Assembly: GCA_041649675.1 (NCBI GenBank)
Contig: JBAZMQ010000004.1
Coordinates: forward strand, 16,338 to 80,337
Length of the DNA stretch: 64,000 bases
DNA from: Patescibacteria group bacterium
Lineage (GTDB): Bacteria; Patescibacteriota; Patescibacteriia; Buchananbacterales; UBA6539
Direction: 5' to 3'
Made by a program: the position numbers and the translations under genes. Below, piece after piece: positions 26-23,059 of this stretch. The notes under the pieces were generated by a model, which had not been told where the DNA came from, did not search any database, and worked only from the letters and a program-made list of their open reading frames with translations. Position 1 is the stretch's first letter. Every line of letters starts with the position of its first letter.

Positions 26-3000
26 GTGGCTAGCGGCGATTTAATCAGCGGTACAGCTTGGTTTGATGCTTTTTCCGTTACTAATAGCTGCGTTACTAAT
101 CCAATTACTTTAAATTTAATTGGGACTATAGATCAAGATGAAAGCAAATTACATTTAGATCGTAATGCTCAAAGTTGTCCGGCCCAAGCCGCTGGTTGTT
201 CTGAATTTATCCGAACCAAAAATAATTTAGGCAGCAACATTGTTCCTAATGCTAGTTTTGAAACCTGGTCTAGTGACATTGCCCAAAGAGGTTGGCAGGG
301 AGATTCAATTAGCCAACTGAGCAACGACGCTAATAATACTACCAATGCAATAGTGGGAAATTCCAGTTTGGTTATTAGTCCTCTTGGCAGTGTCCAAACT
401 GATAGTTTGGTAGCAGTTGCTCCGGCCACTAATTACTATGTATCTTTTTGGGCCAAAGCGCCTAATGCGACTGATGGTGTATCGGTCAGCAATTTTGTTA
501 AATTAAAATGGAAGCAAGGTACTGCCAATAAAGAAGCTGACCTTACTTTTTATCAAGATCCGGATGTTAATCTCAATACTAATTGGCGTCGATTTGTTTC
601 TGACGCCACCACCACTTCTGCTGCCGGCACTAGTTTTGCCCTTGCCTTTGATAACTCAACATCAGAAACCATATATTTAGACGGTGTCCAAATGGAGGCA
701 ATTGGTTACCAAGGTGATTATTCGGCTTATAAGGATTATGGCCTTGTTAATTTAACTTACCTGAAAAAACCGCCGGCTTCCTTTGGCTGCAGTGGTGATT
801 ATCAAAATGATCCAGGCTTATGTAATAACTATGCTTTGTATTGCCGAGCCGATGAAGTGGGGTGCGAAAGTTATACACCGCTTGATAAAAGTGGCCCGGC
901 CGTCCCCGGCGTGGCGGCTTTGGATGATTATTGTCCAGCCGAGTGCGTTGGTTACAATGCTTATAAACAATCAACAACATTTTTTGAAAGCCAAGAATCA
1001 ATAGAATATTTTATTCCTAAAACCGCTGCTCAATGTTCAGCCAGTGAAGAAGGTTGTGATGAATTTACCAATCTGGACAAGGTTTCTCAGGGTGGCGAGG
1101 CTAAAGAGTATTATCAGTACTTGCGTTTATGCAAAAAACCGACCGAGCCGGGGGCAATTTGTCAAAATTATTACACTTGGCAAGGTTCAGGTGAAACTGG
1201 TTATCAGTTAAAAGTTTACAATCTTTCCGCGGCCGCCGAGGGACCGCAAGAGGTTATTCCTTATAATGGTCCGGCTGATACTAATTGGCCTGATTATTGG
1301 TGTGATGACAAAACAATGGGCCAGAACAATCGACCAGTTTGTTGCGATGGCCAAGAAGATATAGCTAGCAATCCTTTCTGCAAGCAGCTGTATTCGGCGG
1401 ATGGTAAAATTTATTATCGGCTTTATCCCAACACTATTACTTGCTCTGATAGCTGTTTGGCTTACAGAAAATCTCGTTTAGGTGAATCAGAAGCAGCGGC
1501 AATGGATAATTGTTCTGGCACTCATGGTACTTGGGATCCGGCCAGCACGGCCTGTGTCTATCAGGCAATTCCCCAGGAAGGGATTGCTTGTTCGGCTCAA
1601 GCGGCTGGTTGTCGTCAGTACCGCGGTAATGCTGGCGGTAATGTTTATACGGCCTACTTTAATGATCTTGAAACTGGTACTTCCAGCGGTTGGCGTTATG
1701 GTTCAATTGACACCGAAGCGTTAGTGGTCGGTGGCCATTCTTTAAAGAGTCATTTAATTGCTAGCGATAACAGAACTATTGTAGAAACAACCAGCGGCCA
1801 TTTAAATAATGGTCCTTGTACCGACAATATTATTAAATATCAGGCGTGCGATGCGGCAAATCCAAATGACTATAATTGTTATGATTCGTCAAGCGGTAAA
1901 TGTATTGCTAAAGATTCCCAAACTACAGACACTTGCAAAGTTGAGCCGCTGGCTGAAGATTGCAGTTTGATAAGCAGCCAAATGACCGAGGGTAAAACTT
2001 ATCTGATTTCGTTTTGGGCCAAGAGTGATTCGGCAACCATAATCAGCAACGCCCAGGTTCAGATGGCAACCACCACCGGTACGACGGTTAAAACTACTGT
2101 GATTGGCACTACCAATATTAAACCGGAATGGAATTACTATAGTTTTGGCCCATTTGTTTATACTGGTGGCGACTATCCGGCTCAATTGACTGCCCAATTA
2201 ATTATCACCACTCCAAATGGAATTAGTACCCAATTTTATGTTGATAATATTAGAATTCAGGAAATAAATAGTTACAGCTACGTAATCAAAGGTTCCTGGA
2301 CGACCCCGGCGAGTTGCGATACTAATCCGTTTGTTAGTCCGGCTGTGGCCGCGCCGCAATTTATGCTTGGTTGTAAACAATACACTGATTTTTATAAACG
2401 GGTTCATAATTTGAAATCATTTAATCATTTATGCCGGGAGCAGGCCGCTGGCTGCGAAGCTTTAATTGATACTTATAATTATTCATCGCCTTTTGGCCAA
2501 AGTTTCAATGTCGCTGACCCAATCGCTCAGGTTAGAATCCCATCTGATCAGATTATTTACATGGTTAACCGGCCAACCTATCAGTGTGATGCCCAATATA
2601 AAGGTTGTCAGTCTTTAGGCCAACCGGCTATTAACAATGAAGATGAAATTTCTAGCTACCAGACGGTCTATCGAGTTAATAATCCGGATAACTATAGTTC
2701 AATCCTTTGTACTAGCGAGCAAGTCGGTTGTGACGAATTTCAAACCGGCAATGGTTTTGCCTACTTTAAAAATCCGGGGTCAAAGACTTGCGAATATAAG
2801 CCAATCCCGAATCAAAATACTTATGGTTGGTTTAAAACCAATTCAACAGCCAGCACACCTGATTGTCCGTTGGTTTCCCCGCCATTAGGAGTACCCCATC
2901 CAGGACAGACTTTTGCCGGTACTTGTTCGGATGAGTATAGTACTTGTACCCAATTTATTGATCCGACTACCGAATATGGTAAAAGTATTGTCTCAAACGG

Positions 3001-6000
3001 TGATTTGCAGCGCGATATAGATGATAATAAATTGCCCGATGATTGGAATATTTGTCAGTCGGCGGCCAATCCGAATGCTTTTTGCGCTAACTATCAAAGT
3101 GTATCGCTGAGACATGATAAACTTTATACTTTAACTGTTATTGGTACTGATGCTGCCAATGATAGTGATCGGCTTTGGTATAATACCGGCCAGCCTTTTA
3201 TTGAAATCAGTAATTGTCCGGCCATTACCTCTTTTGATCATTCAATGGTCAGAGTTTGTACCGATGCCGGTGGTTCGTTGGTTTTAAATGCTGGTAATTT
3301 GCCTACAGTCTGTACAGCCAACAGTGATTGTCCTGGTGGTCAAATTTGTAATGGCAATGTTTTAGTATTGCCTTGGGCTAAAGATAGTCGTAGTGCTGAC
3401 AATACGCCGAATTTACCTAATAGCAGGCAGTACTCCGGTCGTTTCTTTGTGCCGGAAAGGGATGAAATTTGTAGATTAGTTGTTCATACCAATTTATCAT
3501 TCCGGATTGATCAAACTGGAGCTTCTAATTACATCAATAAATATGTTAAAGAAATCAGGTTAGTCCCCACCGATGTTAGCTATGTTCTTAGTGACTCTGT
3601 TGATAAATTAAGTTGTAATGCGATTGTTAATCATGAGAATGGTTGTGTTTTGTTCAATGATCGCAGCAGTGTTAATTATAAGATTGGTGAAGATGATACA
3701 AGTTATTTAAATTTTGATGCCAATGTCAGTGGCCCAACCATTAACAACGGTATTGCCGTTAATCAATGTGCCGGCGTTTGCAATTCTAATGTTGTTTTGA
3801 AAGTTACACCTGACCGGATTTGTAATTCTTGGCTTTATTGTAGCAGCTATGCCACTTTTCCCGGCAGCGGCAGCCAGGGTGAGCGCAATGATTGTACCAG
3901 CATTGGTTTGTGCGATTCTTTGGATGACAACGGTAATTGCAGCGACTTTATTGCGCCCAAGAAAGAAGGTGCTCGCCAGGACTATTACCGTTCCCTTGAA
4001 GAGATCAGGGATTTGAGCGGCTACGTTAAGGCTGGATTAGATTTCACTCAACAATTGGCTAATGCCAAAATTCAAACTGATTTGCCAAAAATTATCCAAG
4101 GTGATTATCCTTATTCGGAAATGGTTCAAAAAGGCGGTATTGTATTCTCGCCTGGCACTAATTTTGAAAATGAGTTATCAAATTCGCTTAAGCCGTTTGG
4201 TTGGAATTTGAGATACCCGTTATTAACTGAACCGCCGGCTCAAAGTTTTTCAACTGCCGTTTGGCTCTTGACTTACTCTAAATTAATTGACAGTCCAATT
4301 GCCGCTCAAAAAGAAGGATTGGATTCTTCCGCTCCTGAAGGCTCAAAGTTTCTTAAACTTAGCGGTCCATACGTTGTTAATTCGGAAGAAATTGATGTGT
4401 TTGGTAGTTCCGAATACATTATGTCAGCCTTTATGAATACCAAAAATTTGCTTAAAGGTAGTGCCATAGTGGCCGTTGAACAATTTAATGATGAAGGAGC
4501 ATCATTAGGAATTAACCATGTATTAAACTTAGGGCGTTCAAGCGATTGGGTTTTTAGAGAAAACAGCTTTAGGACTAACTCGGCGACAACAAGAATAAAA
4601 ATTATTTTAAGTAATTGGGGACCAACTAGCCGAAGTGGTCATAATCCTTGGACTGGTGATACGGCCGACGTTATTCATGATGTTGTCGGTAGTTCTTATT
4701 TTGACGACATTAAAATAAAGCCGAATTTGCAGGTTGGCAATAACGCTTATGTTCCGCCAAGTTGCCGGGTTTATCCAGCGGCTGACTCTTTGAGTTGTGA
4801 TTATGTCACTTCGGACAATTTGCGTTTACGTGGCTGGCTTGGTTATTGCATTGAAACTGATCCGGCTAATCCGCAACAATGTTTGAATTGGTGGCCAATA
4901 GAATTAATTAATGGCGGCTTTGTTGATGAGCAGCCATTCATTACCCAAACGCCGCTTTACTATTGTTTAAAGGCTAAAGAAAATTTTTACGGTTTGCAAG
5001 CTTGTTTATTTAGAACAGATAGCACCCGTTGCGCTTCGGTCGGTGCCGGTGCTACGGGCGCCCCATCGCCAAGAATTTTTAATTGGGCAGTACCAACTGC
5101 TTGGCAGCTGGAAAGATGGCAAATTGTTAAATTAAGAATGATTACCTCGACTGCTGGTTGTCAAACCGAAGCTTGCGGCGGCGCCTTTACTCAGGTAAAC
5201 TTTTTACCTGATCCTAAAGGTAAAGACTCTACGCTTTTTATTAATGGTTCTAAGGGTTGGCAAGCCCATCTTAAATTTGGTACTAATAATAGGTTAGAAA
5301 GTATTGATTTCAATATCGGCGGATCAAATTGTATTTGTCCAGATGCTGATATTACAATTGAAGCCAGGAAGGAATGGTGTCAGATTCTGGTTCAAACCGT
5401 TACGCCTTTTGGTCAAAGCCGACCTTGGTGGAGCCGGATTTCCAATAACAGCGGTTCGACTTATACTGTCCCAGGCCTAAACTATCTTTATAATTTTGAT
5501 ATCGCGCCATACGGTGCGGTGGTACCGTCTTTGCCGGTAGAAAATCCAGCCGCCTGGAATTCAAGTTCTTATGCCGGGGTTGGACCACTGTGGGTGGCTT
5601 CGCCTGACCGGATTAATTTTAATACTCCGTTTCAAGCCAGGGCGGGAATTCCTTATTCTTGCGATCAAACTTCTGCCAAATATGGCAGCTTCAATTGTGC
5701 TTATCCGCCTCAGAGCACTGGTATTGCCAATAAAATTAACAATAAATCCGACCAGCTAGTGACCGCCGAGGTTAAAGGTATGGATAATTTAAAGCGGCTT
5801 TTTGTCCGTAATTATGGCAGTTGGCAGTATCAAGGTGACGGAGTTTGCAAAGATGTGGTAACCAATGAAATTGTAACTCAGGACGGTCGGGAAATCAGCT
5901 GTGCTTGTCCGGAAAGTTCCTGCAATGCCGAAACCAATAATTTTAAAATTTGCGGTTATGTTGACGAAGATGCTTTAGACAGAGGTTTTCCGGGTGTTTG

Positions 6001-7915
6001 CGATAATTGTGAGTCGGCCCCGGCCAACTGCGGCTGGTGTTATAGCGACAGTGACTGTCAGCCGAAAAATGGCGTAGCTGGCAAATGTGATTATACCCTT
6101 GGCCTTTGCCAAAAAGCCGACGACAGTTACAATACTCAAAAGAATTGCTCAGTTGAATATGTTTGTCCGCTCGAAGAAGGTGGCTCTTGTGCGGTTGAAA
6201 AATGTTTGATTGATGGTGCTACTTGTCCAAGCGATGGTAAATGTCTTGACGGTGCTAAATGTGACCCATTGCCTAAGTGTAGTAACGCTGGCGGAAGTGA
6301 TTATTGTTATGCCCAACCGGCAGACAATCAGTGCGGTAACAATGAAAAATGTATCTTGCCGGCTAATTCAGATGAAGTTTTATCCGCTATGGGCAGAGAA
6401 GATCCAACCGGGCAATCATGTGAAATTGGATTTTTCGGTTGTGACATTGATTTATTTGACCTTTTCTTTTCTACTGGCGCATCGGTGATGGAAATGTTTG
6501 TCGGTGCAGTCACGCTGCCAATTGCTATCTTAACTGCTGTTTTGAACTTTGCTATTCAAAAAATTACCAGTTGCCGGCCCCAGGGCTGCAGCGGTCAAGG
6601 TGCAAATTGTGGCGGTGCCGGCAATTGTATTACCTATTTGCATTACTTTCTCTATAAAACAACAATCATGTCTAATGATGAATGGAACTGGTTAGACGAT
6701 GTTCTCAGTGTAATACCTGATTCAACATTAGAGAATATGTCCGGTAGCGTTGAAGGATCCTCCGATGGGTCTAACTCAAACGTTATTTCATCTTTGCTTT
6801 CATCGTTAAATATATTTTCCGGCTCCTCCGGCGCCCAAATTGAGGATTTGCTAGAAGGTCTAACCGAACAAATTGGCATCGGTGGTGTCTTGGGTTTATT
6901 TACCCTTTTTAAGCTTAATTTGAATGATACCTATTGTTCCGGTTCGGACAATGCCTGCCAAACTGGCCCGGATGAGGGCCGGAGTTGTTGCCCGTTTTAT
7001 GCGCCAACCTGTGGTGAAAGTACTAGTATTATTGGTCGATGTTCTGATGGTCCAAACAAGGATTTATCTTGTAAACCGGCTCAAGAAGGTGGTGACCGCG
7101 GTGATGAGTGTCCGACTGGTTCTGTTTGTAAAGTGCGGTCTAATAATGAAACCTATCGGTCGGTTGATGCTTACCATTGGGCTGAACCGAGTTCAATCTG
7201 TCTTAATCCGGCAACTCCCGGTACTGACAATAAACGCTTGAATATCTTTAAGTGTGTTGGTGGCGCCAGCAATGGTGAAATTTGTGCTGGACCGGAAAAT
7301 TGTCCAGACGGCTCTTGTATTCAACAAAATGATTCTTACTGTGCAGTGGCACCAGAAGTTTCTTCAATTAAGATTAATAACCAAAATTTGGGTGATGTTA
7401 AAATCTATGGTGGCGATTACGTTAAAATGGTATTTACTACTGATATTGATTCACAGCAATTACCATTAAACGGTTACATCGTTGATTGGGGTGATGGTAA
7501 AAAAGATGCTGTTTCCGGCCAAGCTTTGCGTAGCCATCCGGACAAAACTAATCCGTTTGACGTTAGCCATTTGTATTCTTTCTGGGATTTACAGCAAGCC
7601 GCTCGGGACGGGGTTTTAAAGTGCGTGGGCCATCCGATTACGGCTGGCGGAACTGATTGTTGCAATGAGCAAGAATGTCACGTCGTGCCCAAGATTCAAA
7701 TCCGGGATAATTGGAATTGGTGTAATGGTAACTTAAGATGTGGCGGTGTTTTAGAAGGCACTCCTTGCAATGATGATAATACTTGCGGCAGTAGCCAATG
7801 TTTGCCGGTTGATAATCAATGGGGGTATAAAGGTAATACTTGTGATACTAATAGTAACGCCTGGCAGTATTATAATGGCGTAATTACTGTTTATCCTTAT
7901 TACAGTAAATTTTAA
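26..7915 (+). CDS. Giant cysteine-rich secreted/surface protein (2629 aa in window; probably 5'-truncated by the window edge). It has two CBM4_9-like carbohydrate-binding modules, a repeated C.(A/E)QAAGC motif, a Cys-rich C-terminal region and C-terminal hydrophobic segments.
   Basis: Single uninterrupted 7.9-kb ORF with no in-frame stop back to nt 2. CBM4_9-like motif 'NYYVSFWAKAP...ETIYLDGVQMEAIG' and second copy 'GKTYLISFWAKSD...QFYVDNIRIQE'. 'CPAQAAGC', 'CSAQAAGC' and 'CREQAAGC'. Hydrophobic stretch 'MFVGAVTLPIAILTAVLNFAI' near aa 2150. Confidence 0.7.
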   Translation: MASGDLISGTAWFDAFSVTNSCVTNPITLNLIGTIDQDESKLHLDRNAQSCPAQAAGCSEFIRTKNNLGSNIVPNASFETWSSDIAQRGWQGDSISQLSNDANNTTNAIVGNSSLVISPLGSVQTDSLVAVAPATNYYVSFWAKAPNATDGVSVSNFVKLKWKQGTANKEADLTFYQDPDVNLNTNWRRFVSDATTTSAAGTSFALAFDNSTSETIYLDGVQMEAIGYQGDYSAYKDYGLVNLTYLKKPPASFGCSGDYQNDPGLCNNYALYCRADEVGCESYTPLDKSGPAVPGVAALDDYCPAECVGYNAYKQSTTFFESQESIEYFIPKTAAQCSASEEGCDEFTNLDKVSQGGEAKEYYQYLRLCKKPTEPGAICQNYYTWQGSGETGYQLKVYNLSAAAEGPQEVIPYNGPADTNWPDYWCDDKTMGQNNRPVCCDGQEDIASNPFCKQLYSADGKIYYRLYPNTITCSDSCLAYRKSRLGESEAAAMDNCSGTHGTWDPASTACVYQAIPQEGIACSAQAAGCRQYRGNAGGNVYTAYFNDLETGTSSGWRYGSIDTEALVVGGHSLKSHLIASDNRTIVETTSGHLNNGPCTDNIIKYQACDAANPNDYNCYDSSSGKCIAKDSQTTDTCKVEPLAEDCSLISSQMTEGKTYLISFWAKSDSATIISNAQVQMATTTGTTVKTTVIGTTNIKPEWNYYSFGPFVYTGGDYPAQLTAQLIITTPNGISTQFYVDNIRIQEINSYSYVIKGSWTTPASCDTNPFVSPAVAAPQFMLGCKQYTDFYKRVHNLKSFNHLCREQAAGCEALIDTYNYSSPFGQSFNVADPIAQVRIPSDQIIYMVNRPTYQCDAQYKGCQSLGQPAINNEDEISSYQTVYRVNNPDNYSSILCTSEQVGCDEFQTGNGFAYFKNPGSKTCEYKPIPNQNTYGWFKTNSTASTPDCPLVSPPLGVPHPGQTFAGTCSDEYSTCTQFIDPTTEYGKSIVSNGDLQRDIDDNKLPDDWNICQSAANPNAFCANYQSVSLRHDKLYTLTVIGTDAANDSDRLWYNTGQPFIEISNCPAITSFDHSMVRVCTDAGGSLVLNAGNLPTVCTANSDCPGGQICNGNVLVLPWAKDSRSADNTPNLPNSRQYSGRFFVPERDEICRLVVHTNLSFRIDQTGASNYINKYVKEIRLVPTDVSYVLSDSVDKLSCNAIVNHENGCVLFNDRSSVNYKIGEDDTSYLNFDANVSGPTINNGIAVNQCAGVCNSNVVLKVTPDRICNSWLYCSSYATFPGSGSQGERNDCTSIGLCDSLDDNGNCSDFIAPKKEGARQDYYRSLEEIRDLSGYVKAGLDFTQQLANAKIQTDLPKIIQGDYPYSEMVQKGGIVFSPGTNFENELSNSLKPFGWNLRYPLLTEPPAQSFSTAVWLLTYSKLIDSPIAAQKEGLDSSAPEGSKFLKLSGPYVVNSEEIDVFGSSEYIMSAFMNTKNLLKGSAIVAVEQFNDEGASLGINHVLNLGRSSDWVFRENSFRTNSATTRIKIILSNWGPTSRSGHNPWTGDTADVIHDVVGSSYFDDIKIKPNLQVGNNAYVPPSCRVYPAADSLSCDYVTSDNLRLRGWLGYCIETDPANPQQCLNWWPIELINGGFVDEQPFITQTPLYYCLKAKENFYGLQACLFRTDSTRCASVGAGATGAPSPRIFNWAVPTAWQLERWQIVKLRMITSTAGCQTEACGGAFTQVNFLPDPKGKDSTLFINGSKGWQAHLKFGTNNRLESIDFNIGGSNCICPDADITIEARKEWCQILVQTVTPFGQSRPWWSRISNNSGSTYTVPGLNYLYNFDIAPYGAVVPSLPVENPAAWNSSSYAGVGPLWVASPDRINFNTPFQARAGIPYSCDQTSAKYGSFNCAYPPQSTGIANKINNKSDQLVTAEVKGMDNLKRLFVRNYGSWQYQGDGVCKDVVTNEIVTQDGREISCACPESSCNAETNNFKICGYVDEDALDRGFPGVCDNCESAPANCGWCYSDSDCQPKNGVAGKCDYTLGLCQKADDSYNTQKNCSVEYVCPLEEGGSCAVEKCLIDGATCPSDGKCLDGAKCDPLPKCSNAGGSDYCYAQPADNQCGNNEKCILPANSDEVLSAMGREDPTGQSCEIGFFGCDIDLFDLFFSTGASVMEMFVGAVTLPIAILTAVLNFAIQKITSCRPQGCSGQGANCGGAGNCITYLHYFLYKTTIMSNDEWNWLDDVLSVIPDSTLENMSGSVEGSSDGSNSNVISSLLSSLNIFSGSSGAQIEDLLEGLTEQIGIGGVLGLFTLFKLNLNDTYCSGSDNACQTGPDEGRSCCPFYAPTCGESTSIIGRCSDGPNKDLSCKPAQEGGDRGDECPTGSVCKVRSNNETYRSVDAYHWAEPSSICLNPATPGTDNKRLNIFKCVGGASNGEICAGPENCPDGSCIQQNDSYCAVAPEVSSIKINNQNLGDVKIYGGDYVKMVFTTDIDSQQLPLNGYIVDWGDGKKDAVSGQALRSHPDKTNPFDVSHLYSFWDLQQAARDGVLKCVGHPITAGGTDCCNEQECHVVPKIQIRDNWNWCNGNLRCGGVLEGTPCNDDNTCGSSQCLPVDNQWGYKGNTCDTNSNAWQYYNGVITVYPYYSKF

Positions 7916-7923
7916 AAATTGTA

Positions 7924-10900
7924 ATGAAAACGATTCCGCGACAATTTAAATTCAAAAAAACCGTGGTTTTGGTATTCGCAGCAGTTTTACTGTCTTCTGT
8001 TGCTTTTAGTGTTTTGCCGGGCTTAGCTTTGAATTTTCAAACCGCCGACCCACTTGAAAAGACCTTGGCAGTTTTACAGGTAACCCCGGTCAGCGCCGCT
8101 GGTGAGCAAACCGAGTCCAAGGATAACGATACCGATAGTTTTTTTGTCACCGCTGTTGGCTGGGTGGTTGAAAAGGCAGTTACTTTGGAAGGTTTTGTAA
8201 TCACTACTGAAACTAAAATCTTGATTTTTTTCTTAAAATATAATGGTTTTGTTAAAGCCAAGGCCGTGGTAATCGGTTGGACTTTAGTAAGGGATGTTTC
8301 TAATTTATTTTTTGTTTTGGTTTTATTGGTTATTGCCCTGGCCACAATTTTAAGGATTGAAGCTTACAATTTCAAGCGGTTATTGCCAAAAATTTTGCTG
8401 ATGGCGGTTTTAATTAATTTCAGCCGTTTAATTTGTGGCTTTATCATTGATTTTGCCCAGGTGATAATGATGAGTTTTGTTGCGGCCTTTGTTAAAATTG
8501 GAACCGGTGGTAATTTGTACGCTGTTTTGCATATCAATGACATTCTATATAGTACTTATGATGTCCAGACTAAGGCTAATACTGAGCAGGGAATTAGTCC
8601 TACGGCCATAGTGGTCAGCGGAATTTTGGCAGTTTTCTTGTTACTGGTTGCTTGTATTGTAATTTTTACCATGATGACTGTGATTATCATGAGAATGATT
8701 ATGCTTTGGATGCTGGTGGTGCTTTCACCGTTACCTTATATTCTTTCAGCCATTCCTAAAGCTGAGCGGTATGCTCAGCAATGGTGGCAGGAATTTAGCA
8801 AATATGTCATTGTTGGTCCAATTTTGGCGTTTTTCCTTTGGCTGACTTTTGCGGTTGCTTCCACTGACCGAGAGGGTTCAATTGGCGGTGAACAAATTGG
8901 CTTGGGTGCAACCGGTTTAGATTCACTAAAAACTTCTTTAGAAACAACTGATAAGGATACAAGCGGCCAAACCAATCAGCCAATAACCGAGGAAGATAAT
9001 AACGGAATTTTTACCGGGATTGGCCAAGTGGAAAATATGCTGTCCTTGATTATCGGGATTGGCATGCTAATGGCCGGTTTAATGATTACTCAGCAGCTGG
9101 GCGTGGCTGGCGGCCAAATGGGCGGAGCGGCAATGTCAAAAATGAAAAGCTTAGGCACCTCATCGCTTAGAAGTGTAGGCGGACTTATTGGCACAGGAGC
9201 CAAGACCTTAGGCAAAGCGCCTTTTCAATATATCGGTAGAAAAGTTAATGAAGCAGTTTATGACGATAGGTTACCAGCCTGGGTCAATCCGGCAGCAATG
9301 TATCGGGGTTGGGTGGCTCGACGCGAGGCTTTGTATACCAAGGCTAAAGAAGGTGCCGCTCTAGGTGGCCAAGAAATGTTTGAAAAAGCATTTACCGGCG
9401 TGGCTCAGCCTCGGCGGTTACAGATGAAAATAGCCGATTCACAAAAATACGCTTCGGAATATTTATTTTTACCAAAAGAAAAATTGGCCAACTATGCCGC
9501 TAATTTATACAAGCAATATCAAACCCATAAGACGCCGGAAATGCGAGCTAAGCTAAGAGGGGTGGCTCAAACTGCCTTTAGAAACGGGTTTGAAGATGAT
9601 GTAATGGATCAAGAGATTTTTCGTAATATGGCGCCAATTGATCCCAGAACCAATATGCCTCTCCACTTAGAAAAGGAACATTATGAGAAAGTGTGGCATA
9701 ACATTTTAGGTGATCATGAGGCCGGTGCATATACGGCCGCAACCGGTGACGAAATAGCTCATGCCACTAAACATTTTGGTGTGGCTGGATTAACTCAAGC
9801 TAACAACGTAACAGGTGATATTGCTTGGAATGATTATGATGAAAAAACTGGCAGATTTGAATGGGAAGAAATCGGGCCGGATGGCCGAAGTTATTTAAAA
9901 AAAGACGCCAATAAAGAAATCAAAAGAGCCAAAGAAGGGGGTAGGGTAGAACTAGCTGAAGCAATTAAAGAAGTTGGGCGAAATAGAAGTTCTTTTCATT
10001 ATCAGGGTATAACTGGAGTCCAAGATCGCAAGGATGCTAAGGGTGAAAAAATGAGAATTGCGGCGCCCTTTAGTGAATTAACAATGGATATGTTAAATTT
10101 ACAATTTAAAGGTCAGAGAGAAATTTTTCTTGGCGAACATTTTAATAGTAGAACTGCCATAGCTTTAGCCGGTGGAAAAATTGGTGACAGCACTTGTGAA
10201 TTTGAAGACAATGGCCTTACTCAAGTTTTGGCTGGTGGGGAGTATGCACCTCATCTATTAAGGAATATAGCCCTATTGGATGCTATTGAACCTTGGTTGG
10301 CTGTAGGTATGATTAAAAAAGTTGGCGGCAGCGAGACTGCCAAGCCAGAGAGTATAAAATATCGCACTGGTGATTGGGTTATGCCATTGCTAAGTTTACG
10401 TATAGCTAGGGACAGTGGTTTATTAGAAAAAATTCATAAGGAAACGGATCAAACTAAAAAAGAGCAGATGGAGCAGGATATGTTTAAACAATACGCTACA
10501 TATTCACCTCGGGCAGCTCAAGCCGCTGGTGCTCCTGGGCCGCAACCGTCACCTACTCCTGGCCCAACGCCTGGTGCTCTTGGGCCGCAACCGTCACCTA
10601 CGGCCGGTCCGTCTCCTGTGCCTTATTCAAGAATGGCCCAGGACTTTGATAGAGAAAAATTTGTCCGGACTAATCAAGCAGTTCATAGGTATGACAATGC
10701 CAATGACTTTTATAAATCTGATGAATACAAAAATGATCAGAATAAATATGAATCAGCGGTTGAGTATGCCAGGCACCGCGACGCTTTAAATCAAAAAGAA
10801 TTGGATCGGGTGAGGGGAACCAAAACTGCATCTACCACTAAAGCCGGTGCGCTGCAAGCCGGAGCTGGTATCAATTTCAGCGACCCTGAGTTACAAAAAG

Positions 10901-11781
10901 CTTATGGCGTTAATTCAGCCATGGATGCGGCATATTTTGAAGGAGAAAATAAAGATAAGGTTATTGAAATGCTTGCCGCTCAGTACTCTCATGATTTGGA
11001 AGCCCAAGGAATGGCGGTTGAAAAGATAAATGAACAAGTTGAGAAATTCAAGCAAGGTTTAAGAAATGCTAAAACTTTGCGGCTTCACAATAATGCCAGT
11101 TTAACTAGCCGGCTAGACCAGGCTCTTCATGAAAAAGCTCACGCTCAAACTATGGGTTTGGCTGATGAACAGTTAAATCAATTCTGGCAGTCACTCAGCA
11201 CAGACCAGCAGCAGCAGATTGAAACTGATATTAAATCAAAATATGGTAATAATATTGCTAGTAAACAAATGAAGCAGGAAGCAATCGCGGAAATGGCCGG
11301 GGTTGGCAAAGGAATTTATGCTCCAAGTGATAAGACTAAAGAAGTTCTAACCGGCTTAAACGTCAAAACTAGACCACAAGCCCAAGAAGATATTTCAAAG
11401 TTAGCACCAGTAGCTCAAAAAGATGTAGAAAAGGAAGGTGAAGAGCTCAAAAAAGCGGTTGCTGGATTTGACGACACCGCCATAGTTCAAGCTTTAGCTG
11501 GGATTGAAGGTATATTGGCTAACGTTGCTTCAACTTTGGATAAAATGCCAAAATCACCGGTTGAAAGCGGGGTCAAAGCTGATTTAAATAGATTGCTTGG
11601 TCAAGTTAGGGATCATCAGTCTGGTGCCGGTGGTGTTTTAGATCCTGGTTCAGTCAGCGGCTTACTGGCCAGTATAAATACTAATTTGAAATCTATTAAT
11701 GAACAATCAAAAAAAGAAAAACCATCGGGAACAGGTGAAGGAAAAATTCCGCCGATGCCGCCGAAGTTAAATAGAAAATAA
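7924..11781 (+). CDS. VirB6/TrbL-like polytopic membrane protein with a long hydrophilic C-terminal extension (1285 aa)
   Basis: N-terminal signal-like segment, then 5-7 TM helices (aa ~110-330) in an arrangement typical of VirB6/TrbL. A ~950-aa charged, coiled-coil-like tail carries the Pro-rich tandem repeat 'GPQPSPT(P/A)GP'. It lies immediately upstream of the VirB3/VirB4-like genes. Confidence 0.45.
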   Translation: MKTIPRQFKFKKTVVLVFAAVLLSSVAFSVLPGLALNFQTADPLEKTLAVLQVTPVSAAGEQTESKDNDTDSFFVTAVGWVVEKAVTLEGFVITTETKILIFFLKYNGFVKAKAVVIGWTLVRDVSNLFFVLVLLVIALATILRIEAYNFKRLLPKILLMAVLINFSRLICGFIIDFAQVIMMSFVAAFVKIGTGGNLYAVLHINDILYSTYDVQTKANTEQGISPTAIVVSGILAVFLLLVACIVIFTMMTVIIMRMIMLWMLVVLSPLPYILSAIPKAERYAQQWWQEFSKYVIVGPILAFFLWLTFAVASTDREGSIGGEQIGLGATGLDSLKTSLETTDKDTSGQTNQPITEEDNNGIFTGIGQVENMLSLIIGIGMLMAGLMITQQLGVAGGQMGGAAMSKMKSLGTSSLRSVGGLIGTGAKTLGKAPFQYIGRKVNEAVYDDRLPAWVNPAAMYRGWVARREALYTKAKEGAALGGQEMFEKAFTGVAQPRRLQMKIADSQKYASEYLFLPKEKLANYAANLYKQYQTHKTPEMRAKLRGVAQTAFRNGFEDDVMDQEIFRNMAPIDPRTNMPLHLEKEHYEKVWHNILGDHEAGAYTAATGDEIAHATKHFGVAGLTQANNVTGDIAWNDYDEKTGRFEWEEIGPDGRSYLKKDANKEIKRAKEGGRVELAEAIKEVGRNRSSFHYQGITGVQDRKDAKGEKMRIAAPFSELTMDMLNLQFKGQREIFLGEHFNSRTAIALAGGKIGDSTCEFEDNGLTQVLAGGEYAPHLLRNIALLDAIEPWLAVGMIKKVGGSETAKPESIKYRTGDWVMPLLSLRIARDSGLLEKIHKETDQTKKEQMEQDMFKQYATYSPRAAQAAGAPGPQPSPTPGPTPGALGPQPSPTAGPSPVPYSRMAQDFDREKFVRTNQAVHRYDNANDFYKSDEYKNDQNKYESAVEYARHRDALNQKELDRVRGTKTASTTKAGALQAGAGINFSDPELQKAYGVNSAMDAAYFEGENKDKVIEMLAAQYSHDLEAQGMAVEKINEQVEKFKQGLRNAKTLRLHNNASLTSRLDQALHEKAHAQTMGLADEQLNQFWQSLSTDQQQQIETDIKSKYGNNIASKQMKQEAIAEMAGVGKGIYAPSDKTKEVLTGLNVKTRPQAQEDISKLAPVAQKDVEKEGEELKKAVAGFDDTAIVQALAGIEGILANVASTLDKMPKSPVESGVKADLNRLLGQVRDHQSGAGGVLDPGSVSGLLASINTNLKSINEQSKKEKPSGTGEGKIPPMPPKLNRK
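10533..10599 (+). repeat. In-frame tandem direct repeat (period ~45 nt) that encodes the Pro-rich linker inside the VirB6-like gene
   Basis: 'ctgggccgcaaccgtcacctac' occurs twice (10533-10554 and 10578-10599). It translates to 'PGPQPSPTPGPTPGALGPQPSPTAGP'. Confidence 0.7.
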
Positions 11782-20075: not shown

Positions 20076-20201
<126 letters not shown>

Positions 20202-20240
20202 CAGACCAGGTTATAGCTATAGTTTTAAAACAAAATATAT

Positions 20241-20753: not shown

Positions 20754-20766
20754 TGTCCCAGTAGCT

Positions 20767-20793
20767 CCCGCCTACGCCTGCGGCTTCGGCGGG
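20767..20793 (+). other. GC-rich hairpin (CCCGCC...GGCGGG) downstream of the 20241-20753 CDS; no U-tract
   Basis: Inverted repeat seen in the sequence. Confidence 0.3.
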
Positions 20794-20826
20794 CAAGTAG
20801 CTGGATACCCGACTCGCTTGACTCGT

Positions 20827-20900
20827 GTCCCTATAGCTCAGCTGGATAGAGCGCAAGCTTGCGGAGCTTGAGGCCGTAGGTTCGATTCCTACTGGGGACG
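20827..20900 (+). tRNA. tRNA-Arg with unusual anticodon GCG; CCA not encoded
   Basis: Manual cloverleaf: acceptor GTCCCTA/TGGGGAC, D-stem GCTC/GAGC, anticodon stem CAAGC/GCTTG with loop TTGCGGA, T-arm GTAGG-TTCGATT-CCTAC, discriminator G. Confidence 0.7.
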
Positions 20901-20917
20901 CGAGTCAGGTGGGCGGG

Positions 20918-20969
20918 GAGCGCAAGCTTGCGGAGCTTGAGGCCGTAGGTTCGATTCCTACTGGGGACG
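20918..20969 (+). repeat. Tandem direct duplicate of the 3' 52 nt of the tRNA-Arg gene (20849-20900), 17 bp downstream of the intact tRNA
   Basis: Exact 52-nt identity 'gagcgcaagcttgcggagcttgaggccgtaggttcgattcctactggggacg'. Confidence 0.9.
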
Positions 20970-20995
20970 CCATTGTAAAATTATTTTTAGCCAAG

Positions 20996-23059
20996 ATGAT
21001 GATTGATTTAACAACACCAGTAGCAGCGGTTAGTCGGGTTGGTAAAACTACGGCTAGCCGTTTAAAGAGATTAGGGATTGAGACCGTTTCGGATCTCATT
21101 TTTTATTACCCTTTTCGCTGGCAGGATTTTAGTCAAATTTCCGATATTTCCGAGCTGCAACCAATTGATGCGGCAACGGTTAAAGTAAAAATTCAGATAA
21201 TTAGTAATCGTCGCAGCCCGGCTAAAAGAAAAATGTTAACCGAGGCTTTGGTTGCTGACCAAACGGGGAGTATAAAAGTTATTTGGTTTAATCAGCCGTT
21301 TTTGACCAAGATTTTGCAGCCTGGAGACGAGGTTTACCTGTCGGGCAAAGTTGATTTTGATCGTTATAATTTACAATTAGTCAATCCGGTCTATGAAAAA
21401 GTTTCAGCCGATACTACCCATACGGCTAGGCTGGTACCCGTTTATTCGGTAACCAATAATTTAACCCAAAAGCAAATTCGGTTTTTAGTTAAATCGGTTT
21501 TGCCGCTTGCGACTTTAATCGCTGATTGGTTGCCGCCCGAGATTAGCCAGGAGAATAACTTAGTTAATTTGAACTTAGCTCTAAACCAAATTCATTTTCC
21601 CAAAGATAAAAAGATTTTAGATTTAGCGATAAATCGTTTAAAATTTGATGAGTTATTTTTATTTCAGTTGTCTGTTTTGGCCAGTAAATTAGATATAGCC
21701 TTAAGCCAGTCGGAAGCAATTGATTTTTTTGAGTCTCAAACTAAAAATTTCGTAGCTTCTTTGCCTTTCACTTTGACCAATGATCAAAGAAAAGTTGCTT
21801 GGCAAATAGTTTCTGATTTACAAAAAAATCAGCCAATGAATCGGCTTTTGCAAGGAGATGTTGGTTCGGGCAAAACTGTGGTGGCGGCAATTGCTATGTT
21901 TAATGTCGCTTTGAACAAAAAACAAGCGGTTTTAATGGCCCCAACCGAAATTTTAGCCAGTCAGCACTATCAAAATTTGTTAAACCTGTTTAAGGATAGC
22001 AATCTAAACATTGCTTTATTTACCAGAAGCCAAAGGCAAGTAAACGGACGAGTTGAGACCAAAAAGAAAATATTGTCTGATTTAAGCTCGGGTGATATTC
22101 AATTAGTTATTGGCACCCATGCTTTAATTCAGCAAGATGTTGAGTTTTCTAATCTAGTTTTAGCCATAGTTGATGAGCAGCATCGTTTTGGTGTTAATCA
22201 GAGAAAAATTTTAAGGCAAAATTCGGGCGATAAAAAAATAACTCCTCACTTGCTTTCAATGACCGCCACGCCAATCCCGCGCTCGTTGGCTTTAACTTTG
22301 TATGGTGATTTGGATTTATCTATAATTAGAGAGATGCCCAAATCCCGAAAAAAAATAATTACTAAAGTTGTTGATCCAAAAAATCGTAAGCAAGCCTATG
22401 AATTTGTTCGCAATCAGGTTAAAACCGGCCGGCAAGTTTTTGTTATTTGTCCGCTAATTGATTTGTCCGATAAACTAGGGGTTAAGGCCGTGACTGATGA
22501 ATTTGAAAAATTAAAGAAAGAAATCTTTCCTGACTTAAGAATAGAAATGCTGCATGGAAAATTAAAGCCAGCTGATAAGGAACGGATTATGGCTAATTTT
22601 TTGGCTAAAAAAAGCGATATTTTGGTTGCTACTTCGGTGGTTGAAGTGGGGGTTGATATACCTAACGCTTCAGTCATGGTAATTGAAGGCGCTGAAAGGT
22701 TTGGCTTAGCTCAGCTACACCAATTCCGCGGTCGGGTTGGACGATCAATTTATCAATCATACTGTTTTTTATTTACCGAAAGTCAAACGGAAAAAACCAA
22801 AGCGCGGCTAAATGCCTTGGTTACGGCCAAGGACGGATTTGAACTGGCTGAACTTGATTTGCAGTTTCGTGGACCAGGTGAGATTTATGGCACGATACAA
22901 TCGGGATTTCCCGAATTTAAAATTGCTCAGCTGATTGATTATGATATTATTATTAAAGCCAAATTAGCCGCTGAAAAAGTATTGGCCTTAGGTTTGGATA
23001 AGTATCCATTGTTAAAACAAAAAATGGAGCAGACTAATAAAGCTGTCCATTTGGAGTAG
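20996..23059 (+). CDS. recG: ATP-dependent DNA helicase RecG
   Basis: Wedge-domain region, Walker A 'GDVGSGKTVVA', 'VDEQHRFGV' and helicase C motifs. The start is taken at ATG 20996 (MMIDLTTP...). The track ORF starting at 20909 runs through the tRNA repeat and is rejected. Confidence 0.9.
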   Translation: MMIDLTTPVAAVSRVGKTTASRLKRLGIETVSDLIFYYPFRWQDFSQISDISELQPIDAATVKVKIQIISNRRSPAKRKMLTEALVADQTGSIKVIWFNQPFLTKILQPGDEVYLSGKVDFDRYNLQLVNPVYEKVSADTTHTARLVPVYSVTNNLTQKQIRFLVKSVLPLATLIADWLPPEISQENNLVNLNLALNQIHFPKDKKILDLAINRLKFDELFLFQLSVLASKLDIALSQSEAIDFFESQTKNFVASLPFTLTNDQRKVAWQIVSDLQKNQPMNRLLQGDVGSGKTVVAAIAMFNVALNKKQAVLMAPTEILASQHYQNLLNLFKDSNLNIALFTRSQRQVNGRVETKKKILSDLSSGDIQLVIGTHALIQQDVEFSNLVLAIVDEQHRFGVNQRKILRQNSGDKKITPHLLSMTATPIPRSLALTLYGDLDLSIIREMPKSRKKIITKVVDPKNRKQAYEFVRNQVKTGRQVFVICPLIDLSDKLGVKAVTDEFEKLKKEIFPDLRIEMLHGKLKPADKERIMANFLAKKSDILVATSVVEVGVDIPNASVMVIEGAERFGLAQLHQFRGRVGRSIYQSYCFLFTESQTEKTKARLNALVTAKDGFELAELDLQFRGPGEIYGTIQSGFPEFKIAQLIDYDIIIKAKLAAEKVLALGLDKYPLLKQKMEQTNKAVHLE

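Follow-up and report, generated by a model that had tools for sequence, protein, structure and literature searches.

A complete tRNA-Arg(GCG) gene probably nested within the remnants of an older tRNA-Arg allele upstream of recG in a Patescibacteria genome

Structure of the tRNA-Arg locus

The subject of this analysis is a tRNA-Arg(GCG) gene and the copy of its own 3' part that follows it, located directly upstream of recG in a 64-kb stretch of DNA (hereafter the window; contig JBAZMQ010000004.1, positions 16,338 to 80,337, assembly GCA_041649675.1) from a Patescibacteria group bacterium of the Buchananbacterales. The repeated segment is probably what remains of the 3' part of an earlier tRNA-Arg gene, displaced when the D loop of that gene was interrupted by a short segment with a complete tRNA-Arg that took its place. 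This reading is carried by the anatomy of the locus, the contiguity of its breakpoints, the allelic difference between its inner and outer pieces, a polymorphism at the fragment end and the recurrence of such fragments in related bacteria, all of which are direct observations.

An intact tRNA-Arg with the anticodon gcg was identified by ARAGORN (for coordinates see Table 1), and the Rfam tRNA model (RF00005) matched positions 20827-20900 with 68 bits against a gathering threshold of 29. Both confirm the canonical fold that the original prediction, made from the letters alone, had placed at 20827. A repeat search of the window revealed an exact direct repeat of 53 nt (20849-20901 and 20918-20970, 69 nt from start to start), whose unit corresponds to positions 23-75 of the tRNA. 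The predicted duplication is thus real, and only its dimensions, given as 52 nt with a 17-nt spacer, were each off by one nucleotide. A 30-mer taken from the repeat occurs twice in the window, versus 0.00 occurrences expected in shuffled sequences; a third copy, envisaged as a distal attachment (att) site, was searched for within the 64 kb and none was found.

The second copy has no 5' half; Rfam recognizes it only as an incomplete tRNA, which covers model positions 9-63 and, at 26.4 bits, does not reach the gathering score. No Rfam families other than tRNA were detected even at relaxed thresholds, and promoter and terminator scans at the locus were uninformative. The two copies also differ in what follows them: the inner gene ends as ...GGGGACGCGA with no CCA, whereas the outer 3' piece, reading ...GGGGACGCCA, has an encoded CCA (20970-20972) and abuts the recG leader.

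Upstream of the intact gene lies a 5' fragment of a different tRNA-Arg allele (20755-20807), which is interrupted by a 31-nt hairpin. Without the hairpin, its two parts (13 and 9 nt) correspond to positions 1-22 of tRNA-Arg(GCG) and match the intact gene of a related locus, L004, at 22 of 22 positions. The breakpoints are contiguous, as the 5' piece stops at tRNA position 22 and the 3' copy begins at position 23, and when the outer pieces were spliced to each other in silico, ARAGORN recognized the product as tRNA-Arg(gcg). The ~110 nt between the breakpoints (20808-20917) comprise a 19-nt leader, the intact tRNA and a 16-nt trailer. As DNA, this unit folds into a cloverleaf that sits on an extended stem of leader and trailer (z = -4.2; not equalled by any of 200 shuffles). 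The surrounding region is also strongly structured when taken together (z = -6.0), but trivially so, because tRNA parts are repeated in it. The inner tRNA-Arg(GCG) is presumed to be the functional gene.

In most bacteria the CGN codons are decoded by a tRNA-Arg whose ACG anticodon is converted by TadA, acting on A34, to ICG (I, inosine). The A34-bearing anticodon expected of such typical decoding is replaced here by GCG. The original prediction had called this anticodon correctly, as ARAGORN confirms, but had regarded it as unusual; since 62 loci of related Patescibacteria (numbered here with the prefix L) carry a tRNA-Arg(GCG), usually just upstream of recG, GCG is the norm of the lineage. 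A G34-bearing tRNA-Arg(GCG) is known from Mollicutes that have lost TadA (PMC3711424).

Table 1. Features of the tRNA-Arg locus and its neighbourhood (positions within the window)
Feature	Position	Strand	Remarks
tRNA-Ser(GCU) and hairpin of the same family	20076..20202	+	tRNA 20076-20165, hairpin ~20162-20202
Outer (old) tRNA-Arg 5' fragment, part a	20755..20767	+	GTCCCAGTAGCTC; tRNA positions 1-13; acceptor allele GTCCCAG, intact in L004 and L013
Hairpin module, 31 nt, GC-rich	20768..20798	+	CCGCC-TACGC-CTGCG-GCTTC-GGCGGG-CAAGT; within the D loop of the old 5' fragment
Outer (old) tRNA-Arg 5' fragment, part b	20799..20807	+	AGCTGGATA; tRNA positions 14-22; its end is the D-loop breakpoint recurring in relatives
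Inner-gene leader, 19 nt	20808..20826	+	CCCGACTCGCTTGACTCGT; complementary to the trailer; left flank of the putative inserted segment
Inner intact tRNA-Arg(GCG)	20827..20901	+	acceptor GTCCCTA/TGGGGAC; no encoded CCA
Spacer and trailer, 16 nt	20902..20917	+	GAGTCAGGTGGGCGGG; pairs with the leader; right flank of the putative inserted segment
Outer (old) tRNA-Arg, displaced 3' part	20918..20972	+	tRNA positions 23-76 including the encoded CCA
recG	20996..23059	+	conserved downstream neighbour; starts 23 nt past the CCA of the displaced fragment

A sister allele of the same strain

The locus is also represented by L081, an independent MEGAHIT contig (ENA ERZ27247363, k = 141), and by L082 from the same sample. 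No mismatches separate the window from these sister contigs over 5,721 nt upstream and 10,091 nt downstream, and the sole difference lies at the end of the second copy. There the window reads ...CCTAC TGGGGAC GCCATTG, whereas the sister allele reads ...CCTAC CTGGGCC GCCA CCTACATTTT... and continues into additional DNA of at least 1 kb (designated X), at the right end of which a gene for a PEP-utilizer-domain protein is followed by ...CTGTCAC GCCATTG. As the two junctions of X share no core beyond CGCCA, a single conservative att x att crossover linking the two alleles is ruled out. The polymorphism at the fragment end is very recent, and the identification of the site as an active insertion hot spot is supported, since the same strain background has an allele whose extra DNA begins precisely where the second copy stops.

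The protein encoded at the right end of X has its best homologue at just 52% identity, and the open reading frame (ORF) at the left end has no relative among the related loci compared. Both ends of X are similar to the spacer between tRNA and recG in L002 (21/21 and 37/42 matches), a locus in which a GIY-YIG gene lies directly past the tRNA 3' end (Pfam E = 1e-16).

The acceptor strand of the sister allele, CTGGGCC, fits the outer 5' piece, with which it forms the pairs A6-T67 and G7-C66 and has one mismatch in all, whereas it has three mismatches to the inner 5' half. Given this covariation, the two outer pieces are best understood as halves of one former gene of the CTGGGAC class, the inner gene being of the TGGGGAC class. 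Both classes exist as intact genes in close relatives (TGGGGAC in L001; CTGGGAC in L004, L013 and L042).

The sister contigs also bear on the possibility that the tandem copy, or its junction with recG, was created by reads mis-joined across the tRNA repeat. The window allele was not recovered from an independent record, and the sole other assembly of the strain breaks at the same point. Yet the independently assembled L081 agrees fully with the window across the intact tRNA and the spacer and over 44 nt of the second copy; the duplication is therefore not an artefact of a single assembly. The window junction (GGGGACGCCATTG) shares only ~4-6 nt with either alternative path, which would be too little for a k-mer mis-join, and similar structures occur in many unrelated assemblies. 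We consider an assembly artefact extremely improbable.

No viral contigs containing the repeat core were found, and a scan of Joint Genome Institute (JGI) metagenomes with a 26-mer from the tRNA 3' end returned unrelated tRNAs sharing the T arm and acceptor only, with no contig of the same strain and no empty site. Another tRNA-Arg(GCG) of the candidate phyla radiation (CPR), at ~4350-4400 of L083, has the same T arm and acceptor as the inner gene of the window. Its leader contains repeated AAGTCAGACTC motifs resembling the leader/trailer of the window (GACTCG / CGAGTCAG), a hint that the inner gene may derive from such a donor lineage. In L081, ARAGORN calls a 71-nt tRNA-Arg at 5662-5732, i.e. 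in the spacer and second copy, which constitutes an annotation hazard.

Genomic context of the locus

The best relatives of the window RecG are found in Candidatus Buchananbacteria and in metagenome-assembled genomes of other Patescibacteria. The genes upstream of the tRNA-Arg encode MetK, a PrgI/TraC-like/VirB4-like cluster, a ComF-like protein, tRNA-Ser(GCU) and a DUF5673 protein; downstream follow RecG, MPG, RadA and a ClpB-like protein and, farther on in the window, type IV pilus genes, LigA and GatC/A. The order PrgI, TraC-like, VirB4-like, ORF199, ComF, DUF5673, tRNA-Arg, RecG is collinear in relatives down to ~54% RecG identity. The VirB4-like protein is 74-91% identical across relatives, i.e. 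more conserved than RecG, and the composition of the upstream block is unremarkable. This block, which resembles a type IV secretion system, therefore appears to be conserved core genome and not an island anchored at the tRNA.

The original prediction had proposed tRNA-Arg as a possible anchor of the ~20 kb upstream and had suggested comparing related genomes for the presence or absence of this block. The anchor role did not survive, given the VirB4-like conservation and the collinearity of the block in nine relatives (L001, L004, L005, L007, L008, L014, L017, L018 and L042), where no such polymorphism was observed. A tyrosine integrase, for which a search had been suggested, is also missing: when 57 ORFs of the window, almost every one that reaches 150 aa, were compared with Pfam, no integrase, recombinase or transposase was detected in the 64 kb, and no GIY-YIG nuclease is encoded there.

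These results affect the classical explanation of such a locus, in which an element (a phage, an island or an integrative and conjugative element) would have entered the 3' half of tRNA-Arg by means of a tyrosine integrase, duplicating a 53-bp core, and would then have been lost or internally deleted, so that only 16 nt now separate attL from attR. An intact tRNA gene followed on its right by a direct repeat of its 3' segment is indeed the textbook attL/attR pattern, fragments of prokaryotic tRNA genes left by integrated DNA are well documented (PMC9897764), and an insertion polymorphism exists at the second copy in the same strain. On the other hand, the 64 kb contain neither an integrase nor a third core. 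Excision by an integrase leads back to a single core and would not leave two of them 16 nt apart, and these 16 nt contain no element DNA. Moreover, an att duplication makes no complementary 5' fragment of another allele, such as the one upstream whose end meets the beginning of the 3' copy. CGCCA is all that the two junctions of the polymorphic insertion have in common, the core was not found in any viral contig, and the supposed upstream element is conserved, collinear core genome. An integrase scar is consequently unlikely. What stands of the original interpretation is that the locus is a scar of recombination or mobile DNA at a tRNA gene; what does not is its classical attL/attR nature.

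Two further features of the neighbourhood were noted. The longest recG ORF (GTG at 20909, 716 aa, ending at 23059) crosses the tRNA fragment, although the start conserved among homologues is an ATG at 20996; this, too, is an annotation hazard. The PrgI/VirB4-like cluster is preceded by two very large ORFs (26-11781), one of 2,629 aa with a single CBM_4_9 match and one of 1,285 aa with no Pfam match.

tRNA fragments and hairpin modules in related bacteria

Exact self-fragments of at least 11 nt are present in the flanks of 10 of the 62 tRNA-Arg(GCG) loci, and likewise at several tRNA-Ser, tRNA-Asn and tRNA-Glu genes; the closest relatives, L001 and L004, have tRNA-Arg and recG without a fragment. 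The 5' fragments end in the D loop at ...GGATA (L005, L007, L014, L023, L029, L037 and L095-L097, the latter from WWE3), are intruded by ~30-nt hairpins after position 12/13 and are often arranged in tandem (L014, L029, L037, L007). The 3' fragments begin at the T loop and read GGTTC[double hairpin]AATCC...CCA (L005, L006, L009, L037, L071, L029). In L005 three nested acceptor pairs are found, with 7/7, 7/7 and 6/7 matches to their own partners. L071 contains an intact tRNA-Glu without CCA, a GIY-YIG ORF, a double hairpin and a displaced 3' end with CCA, L070 being the corresponding empty site. The polarity of the CCA is thus the same as in the window, i.e. absent from the intact gene and present on the displaced 3' end.

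The number of fragments may vary within a species. At the tRNA-Arg(GCG) of one species of WWE3, a distant phylum, of which several samples were compared, a 95-nt unit, consisting of the tRNA-Arg 5' fragment with its D-loop hairpin and a leader, occurs once in L095 and L097 and twice in L096 (~2310-2500), which is well explained by unequal crossing-over. Apart from this, a 66-nt unit, GGTTC[double hairpin]GAATCCTGCTCCCACCGCCA, which is a tRNA 3' end with a T-loop hairpin, is repeated identically in tandem at least four times at 5-232 of L029; a fifth copy lies 1.2 kb away (1422-1451).

Such variation raises the question of whether the window repeat arose by local tandem duplication, through slippage or unequal crossing-over and with no foreign DNA, the 5' fragment being the product of an unrelated older duplication. 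The two copies are 100% identical and just 69 nt apart, and fragment arrays of relatives do differ in copy number (L095 versus L096) or form longer series (L014, L029). However, a duplicated 69-nt unit should include the spacer, yet identity ends after 53 nt at the discriminator/CCA, and the repeat begins exactly where the 5' fragment ends. In addition, the 5' fragment and the 3' fragment of L081 represent a different, mutually compensating acceptor allele that is intact in other species, and the leader and trailer of the inner gene pair together. We regard a purely local duplication as quite unlikely.

The 31-nt insert in the 5' fragment of the window belongs to a covarying hairpin family, in which 98% of cells are paired and 4 of 6 pairs show compensatory changes, none of 500 shuffles being as good. 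Elsewhere, members of this family directly follow the ...GCCA end of tRNA genes and lead GIY-YIG cassettes, and ~17 of 20 strict double hairpins in 0.9 Mb sit in tRNA-derived loop contexts, while one lies in frame in the recG of L020. The 64-kb window has two members, both at tRNAs (the tRNA-Arg 5' fragment and tRNA-Ser); a search for the motif CCGCC...GGCGG returned only the insert at 20768 and one unrelated site.

Several other explanations of the hairpins or of the fragment junctions were weighed and set aside. As far as the 64-kb window is concerned, a dispersed hairpin of the repetitive extragenic palindromic (REP) type was not borne out, the members of the family found there being tRNA-associated. 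A simple target-site duplication does not fit because the hairpin lies within the duplicated copy and not between copies. Integron-like insertion at GTT secondary sites is contradicted by the absence of GTT from some sites, and introns of the archaeal type by the intact gene that is always present.

The second hairpin of the window follows directly upon tRNA-Ser(GCU). It is of the TACGC...GCTTC family (GCCAGAC-TACGC-...-GCTTC-GTCTGGC), its 5' arm takes in the tRNA's own CCA, and the DUF5673 gene follows directly. At the same spot a GIY-YIG gene is found in L004, L012, WWE3 and Uhrbacteria, and none in the window. A different situation was observed in L020, where a 30-nt double hairpin (CCAGCCAGAGGCTGGTCCGCCTCTGGCGGA, 7702-7731) forms a clean in-frame insertion of 10 aa in RecG, which contains other in-frame repeat-like insertions as well, e.g. 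NPPSPPLIKRGNIKNPPFIKGGGGGF.

The conservation of covarying hairpin modules at tRNA ends might also point to a functional RNA, i.e. a 3' half retained in a tRNA-recG co-transcript as a processing signal, as a decoy for RNase P/Z or the CCA-adding enzyme, or as an alternative 3' half. The fragment does lie within the recG 5' leader, is oriented like recG and precedes its start codon by 23 nt, in a strongly structured region (z = -6.0). Nevertheless, it is not conserved, being absent from the closest relatives L001 and L004, and the sister allele both alters the acceptor strand and parts it from recG by extra DNA. The fragment also has no 5' half and scores below the Rfam threshold, and the repetition of tRNA parts is by itself enough to account for the high structure score. 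A functional role of this kind seems highly improbable.

GIY-YIG genes adjacent to tRNA genes

Related loci contain 12 GIY-YIG ORFs; L001, L002, L004, L012 and L071 are among the loci in which such a gene stands at a tRNA gene. Nine of the 12 lie within ~150 nt of a tRNA, and five are bracketed by direct repeats, 14-75 nt long, with tRNA ends. In Uhrbacteria, WWE3 and others the gene is located 90-130 nt past tRNA-Ser, behind the same hairpin leader. The encoded proteins, of 78-82 aa, are 65-80% identical across CPR phyla; their closest PDB structures are UPF0213 and SLX1, a structure-specific endonuclease. No NCBIfam equivalog exists for this family, and no viral relatives of it were found.

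Two of these loci show additional rearrangements or mobile genes. At 4340-5270 of L004, downstream of tRNA-Ser(GCU), three GIY-YIG copies, some of them truncated, stand in tandem and are separated by direct repeats of 75 and 123 nt that include the tRNA 3' end and the hairpin. In the Berkelbacteria contig L093 (2650-3243), a gene for a Y1 transposase of the IS200/IS605 type is present ~0.9 kb downstream of the GIY-YIG cassette; a connection of the hairpin modules with single-strand transposition is conceivable.

Proposed origin of the nested gene

We propose that a D-loop break separated positions 22 and 23 of an older tRNA-Arg(GCG) gene and that the break came to be occupied by the segment 20808-20917 (~110 nt), which would have carried a complete tRNA-Arg(GCG) of another allele together with a leader and trailer that pair. 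The old 5' portion (positions 1-22) would have stayed upstream at 20755-20807 and would itself have gained the 31-nt hairpin module. The outcome would be a gene inside a gene, the inner copy keeping an essential tRNA functional and the outer halves being dead remnants. Break and replacement probably took place in one step, because both acceptor strands differ compensatingly between the inner and outer genes, as would be expected if the inner gene arrived whole. In the window strain, the outer 3' acceptor may later have been homogenised to the inner sequence by conversion or recombination.

It seems that a process of this kind could operate throughout Patescibacteria. tRNA genes would be hit in the D loop at ~12/13 and 21/22 or in the T loop at 56/57 and then regenerated, and the hits would leave nested or tandem fragments with GC-rich hairpin modules, often beside an 80-aa SLX1/UPF0213-like GIY-YIG gene. 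Purely as a hypothesis, the hairpin/GIY-YIG cassettes might either cause the breaks at tRNA loops or serve their repair. More tentatively than for the window locus itself, we can imagine an undescribed mini-element of Patescibacteria that targets tRNA genes, consists of hairpin modules with or without the 80-aa GIY-YIG gene and breaks fixed D- and T-loop positions. The survivors would regenerate an intact tRNA, sometimes by means of a whole foreign allele, producing nested or tandem fossil fragments and horizontal turnover of alleles. The window locus would then be an ORF-less, still polymorphic example; on present evidence such an element is possible, though rather doubtful.

Several points weigh against the proposed splitting and replacement, or against the role given in it to the cassettes. 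The outer 3' acceptor of the window is the same as the inner one, hence the covariation argument depends on the sister allele L081, and the relation of the window and L081 alleles cannot be reduced to one simple event. The part of X covered by the sister contigs, namely its two ends, includes at the right an ordinary gene for a PEP-utilizer-domain protein. The terminal inverted repeats of the 110-nt segment, which would have had to enter a D loop, are short (CCCG/CGGG, GACTCG/CGAGTC), and the 31-nt hairpin taken alone does not fold significantly better than shuffles (z = -1.2). The GIY-YIG proteins are bare catalytic domains with no DNA-binding domain, so that site-specific cutting of tRNA genes is not evident, and, as the window itself encodes no nuclease, integrase or transposase, their link to the locus comes from the relatives.

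A practical consequence is that half-tRNA copies beside tRNA genes in bacteria of the candidate phyla should not be taken for att sites of integrases or for the limits of islands. They can also be mis-called as extra tRNAs, as in L081, or absorbed into extended ORFs, as in recG with its GTG at 20909. If the proposed origin is true, very small genomes, presumably with single-copy tRNA genes, tolerate hits in these genes and repair them by in-place replacement, and the leftover halves are datable fossils that directly record the horizontal turnover of tRNA alleles. The very conserved 80-aa GIY-YIG protein and the covarying hairpins, in their association with tRNA genes, are a candidate mobile or recombination system.

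Comparison with known systems

No description of hairpin-interrupted tRNA fragments or of GIY-YIG/tRNA cassettes in CPR bacteria was found in the searchable literature, which likewise contained no account of the proposed nested replacement of a whole gene, of the interruption of fragments by hairpins at fixed loop positions or of the link with an 80-aa GIY-YIG family across Patescibacteria. Partial counterparts exist elsewhere. In archaea, split and intron-containing tRNA genes are interrupted at non-canonical positions, including the D and T loops, and have GC-rich complementary flanks. The loci described here share the D- and T-loop interruptions and the GC-rich complementary flanks with these genes but, unlike them, belong to bacteria, always have an uninterrupted gene beside the fragments and contain fragments that lack the rest of the tRNA.

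REP elements and bacterial interspersed mosaic elements (BIMEs), as well as Rickettsia palindromic elements, have in common with the modules described here a length of ~30 nt, GC-rich hairpins with covarying stems and an AT-rich genome. Rickettsia palindromic elements are moreover known to insert in frame into genes, to which the 10-aa insertion in the RecG of L020 is similar. In contrast to both groups, the hairpins presented here are nearly confined to D- and T-loop positions of tRNA fragments and to tRNA 3' ends.

The att duplications produced by tyrosine-integrase elements resemble the window in that a partial tRNA copy stands beside an intact, regenerated gene, at a hot spot for insertion of foreign DNA, and in that the fragment can be mistaken for a tRNA, as happened with ARAGORN in L081. 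Unlike them, the window has no integrase and no element between the copies; its 5' and 3' fragments are contiguous at positions 22/23, which makes the intact gene a nested one, the fragments come from a different allele of the same tRNA, and hairpin modules are found inside fragments.

The nearest functional analogue of the CPR GIY-YIG family appears to be SegB of phage T4, a free-standing GIY-YIG homing endonuclease in a tRNA gene cluster (PMC2330249); the enzyme furthermore favours the amplification of tRNA loci in segments (PMC13096335). The analogy has its limits, as the CPR proteins, in contrast to the Seg and I-TevI enzymes, are 78-82 aa long, comprise the catalytic domain only and are nearest to UPF0213 and SLX1; unlike the phage SegB gene, their genes are chromosomal, with no viral relatives found, and the window encodes none. 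On the other hand, SegB and the CPR loci have in common a GIY-YIG gene beside tRNA genes and the conversion or duplication of tRNA regions, and the 3-nt acceptor difference linked to insertion X resembles the co-conversion of markers that accompanies homing.

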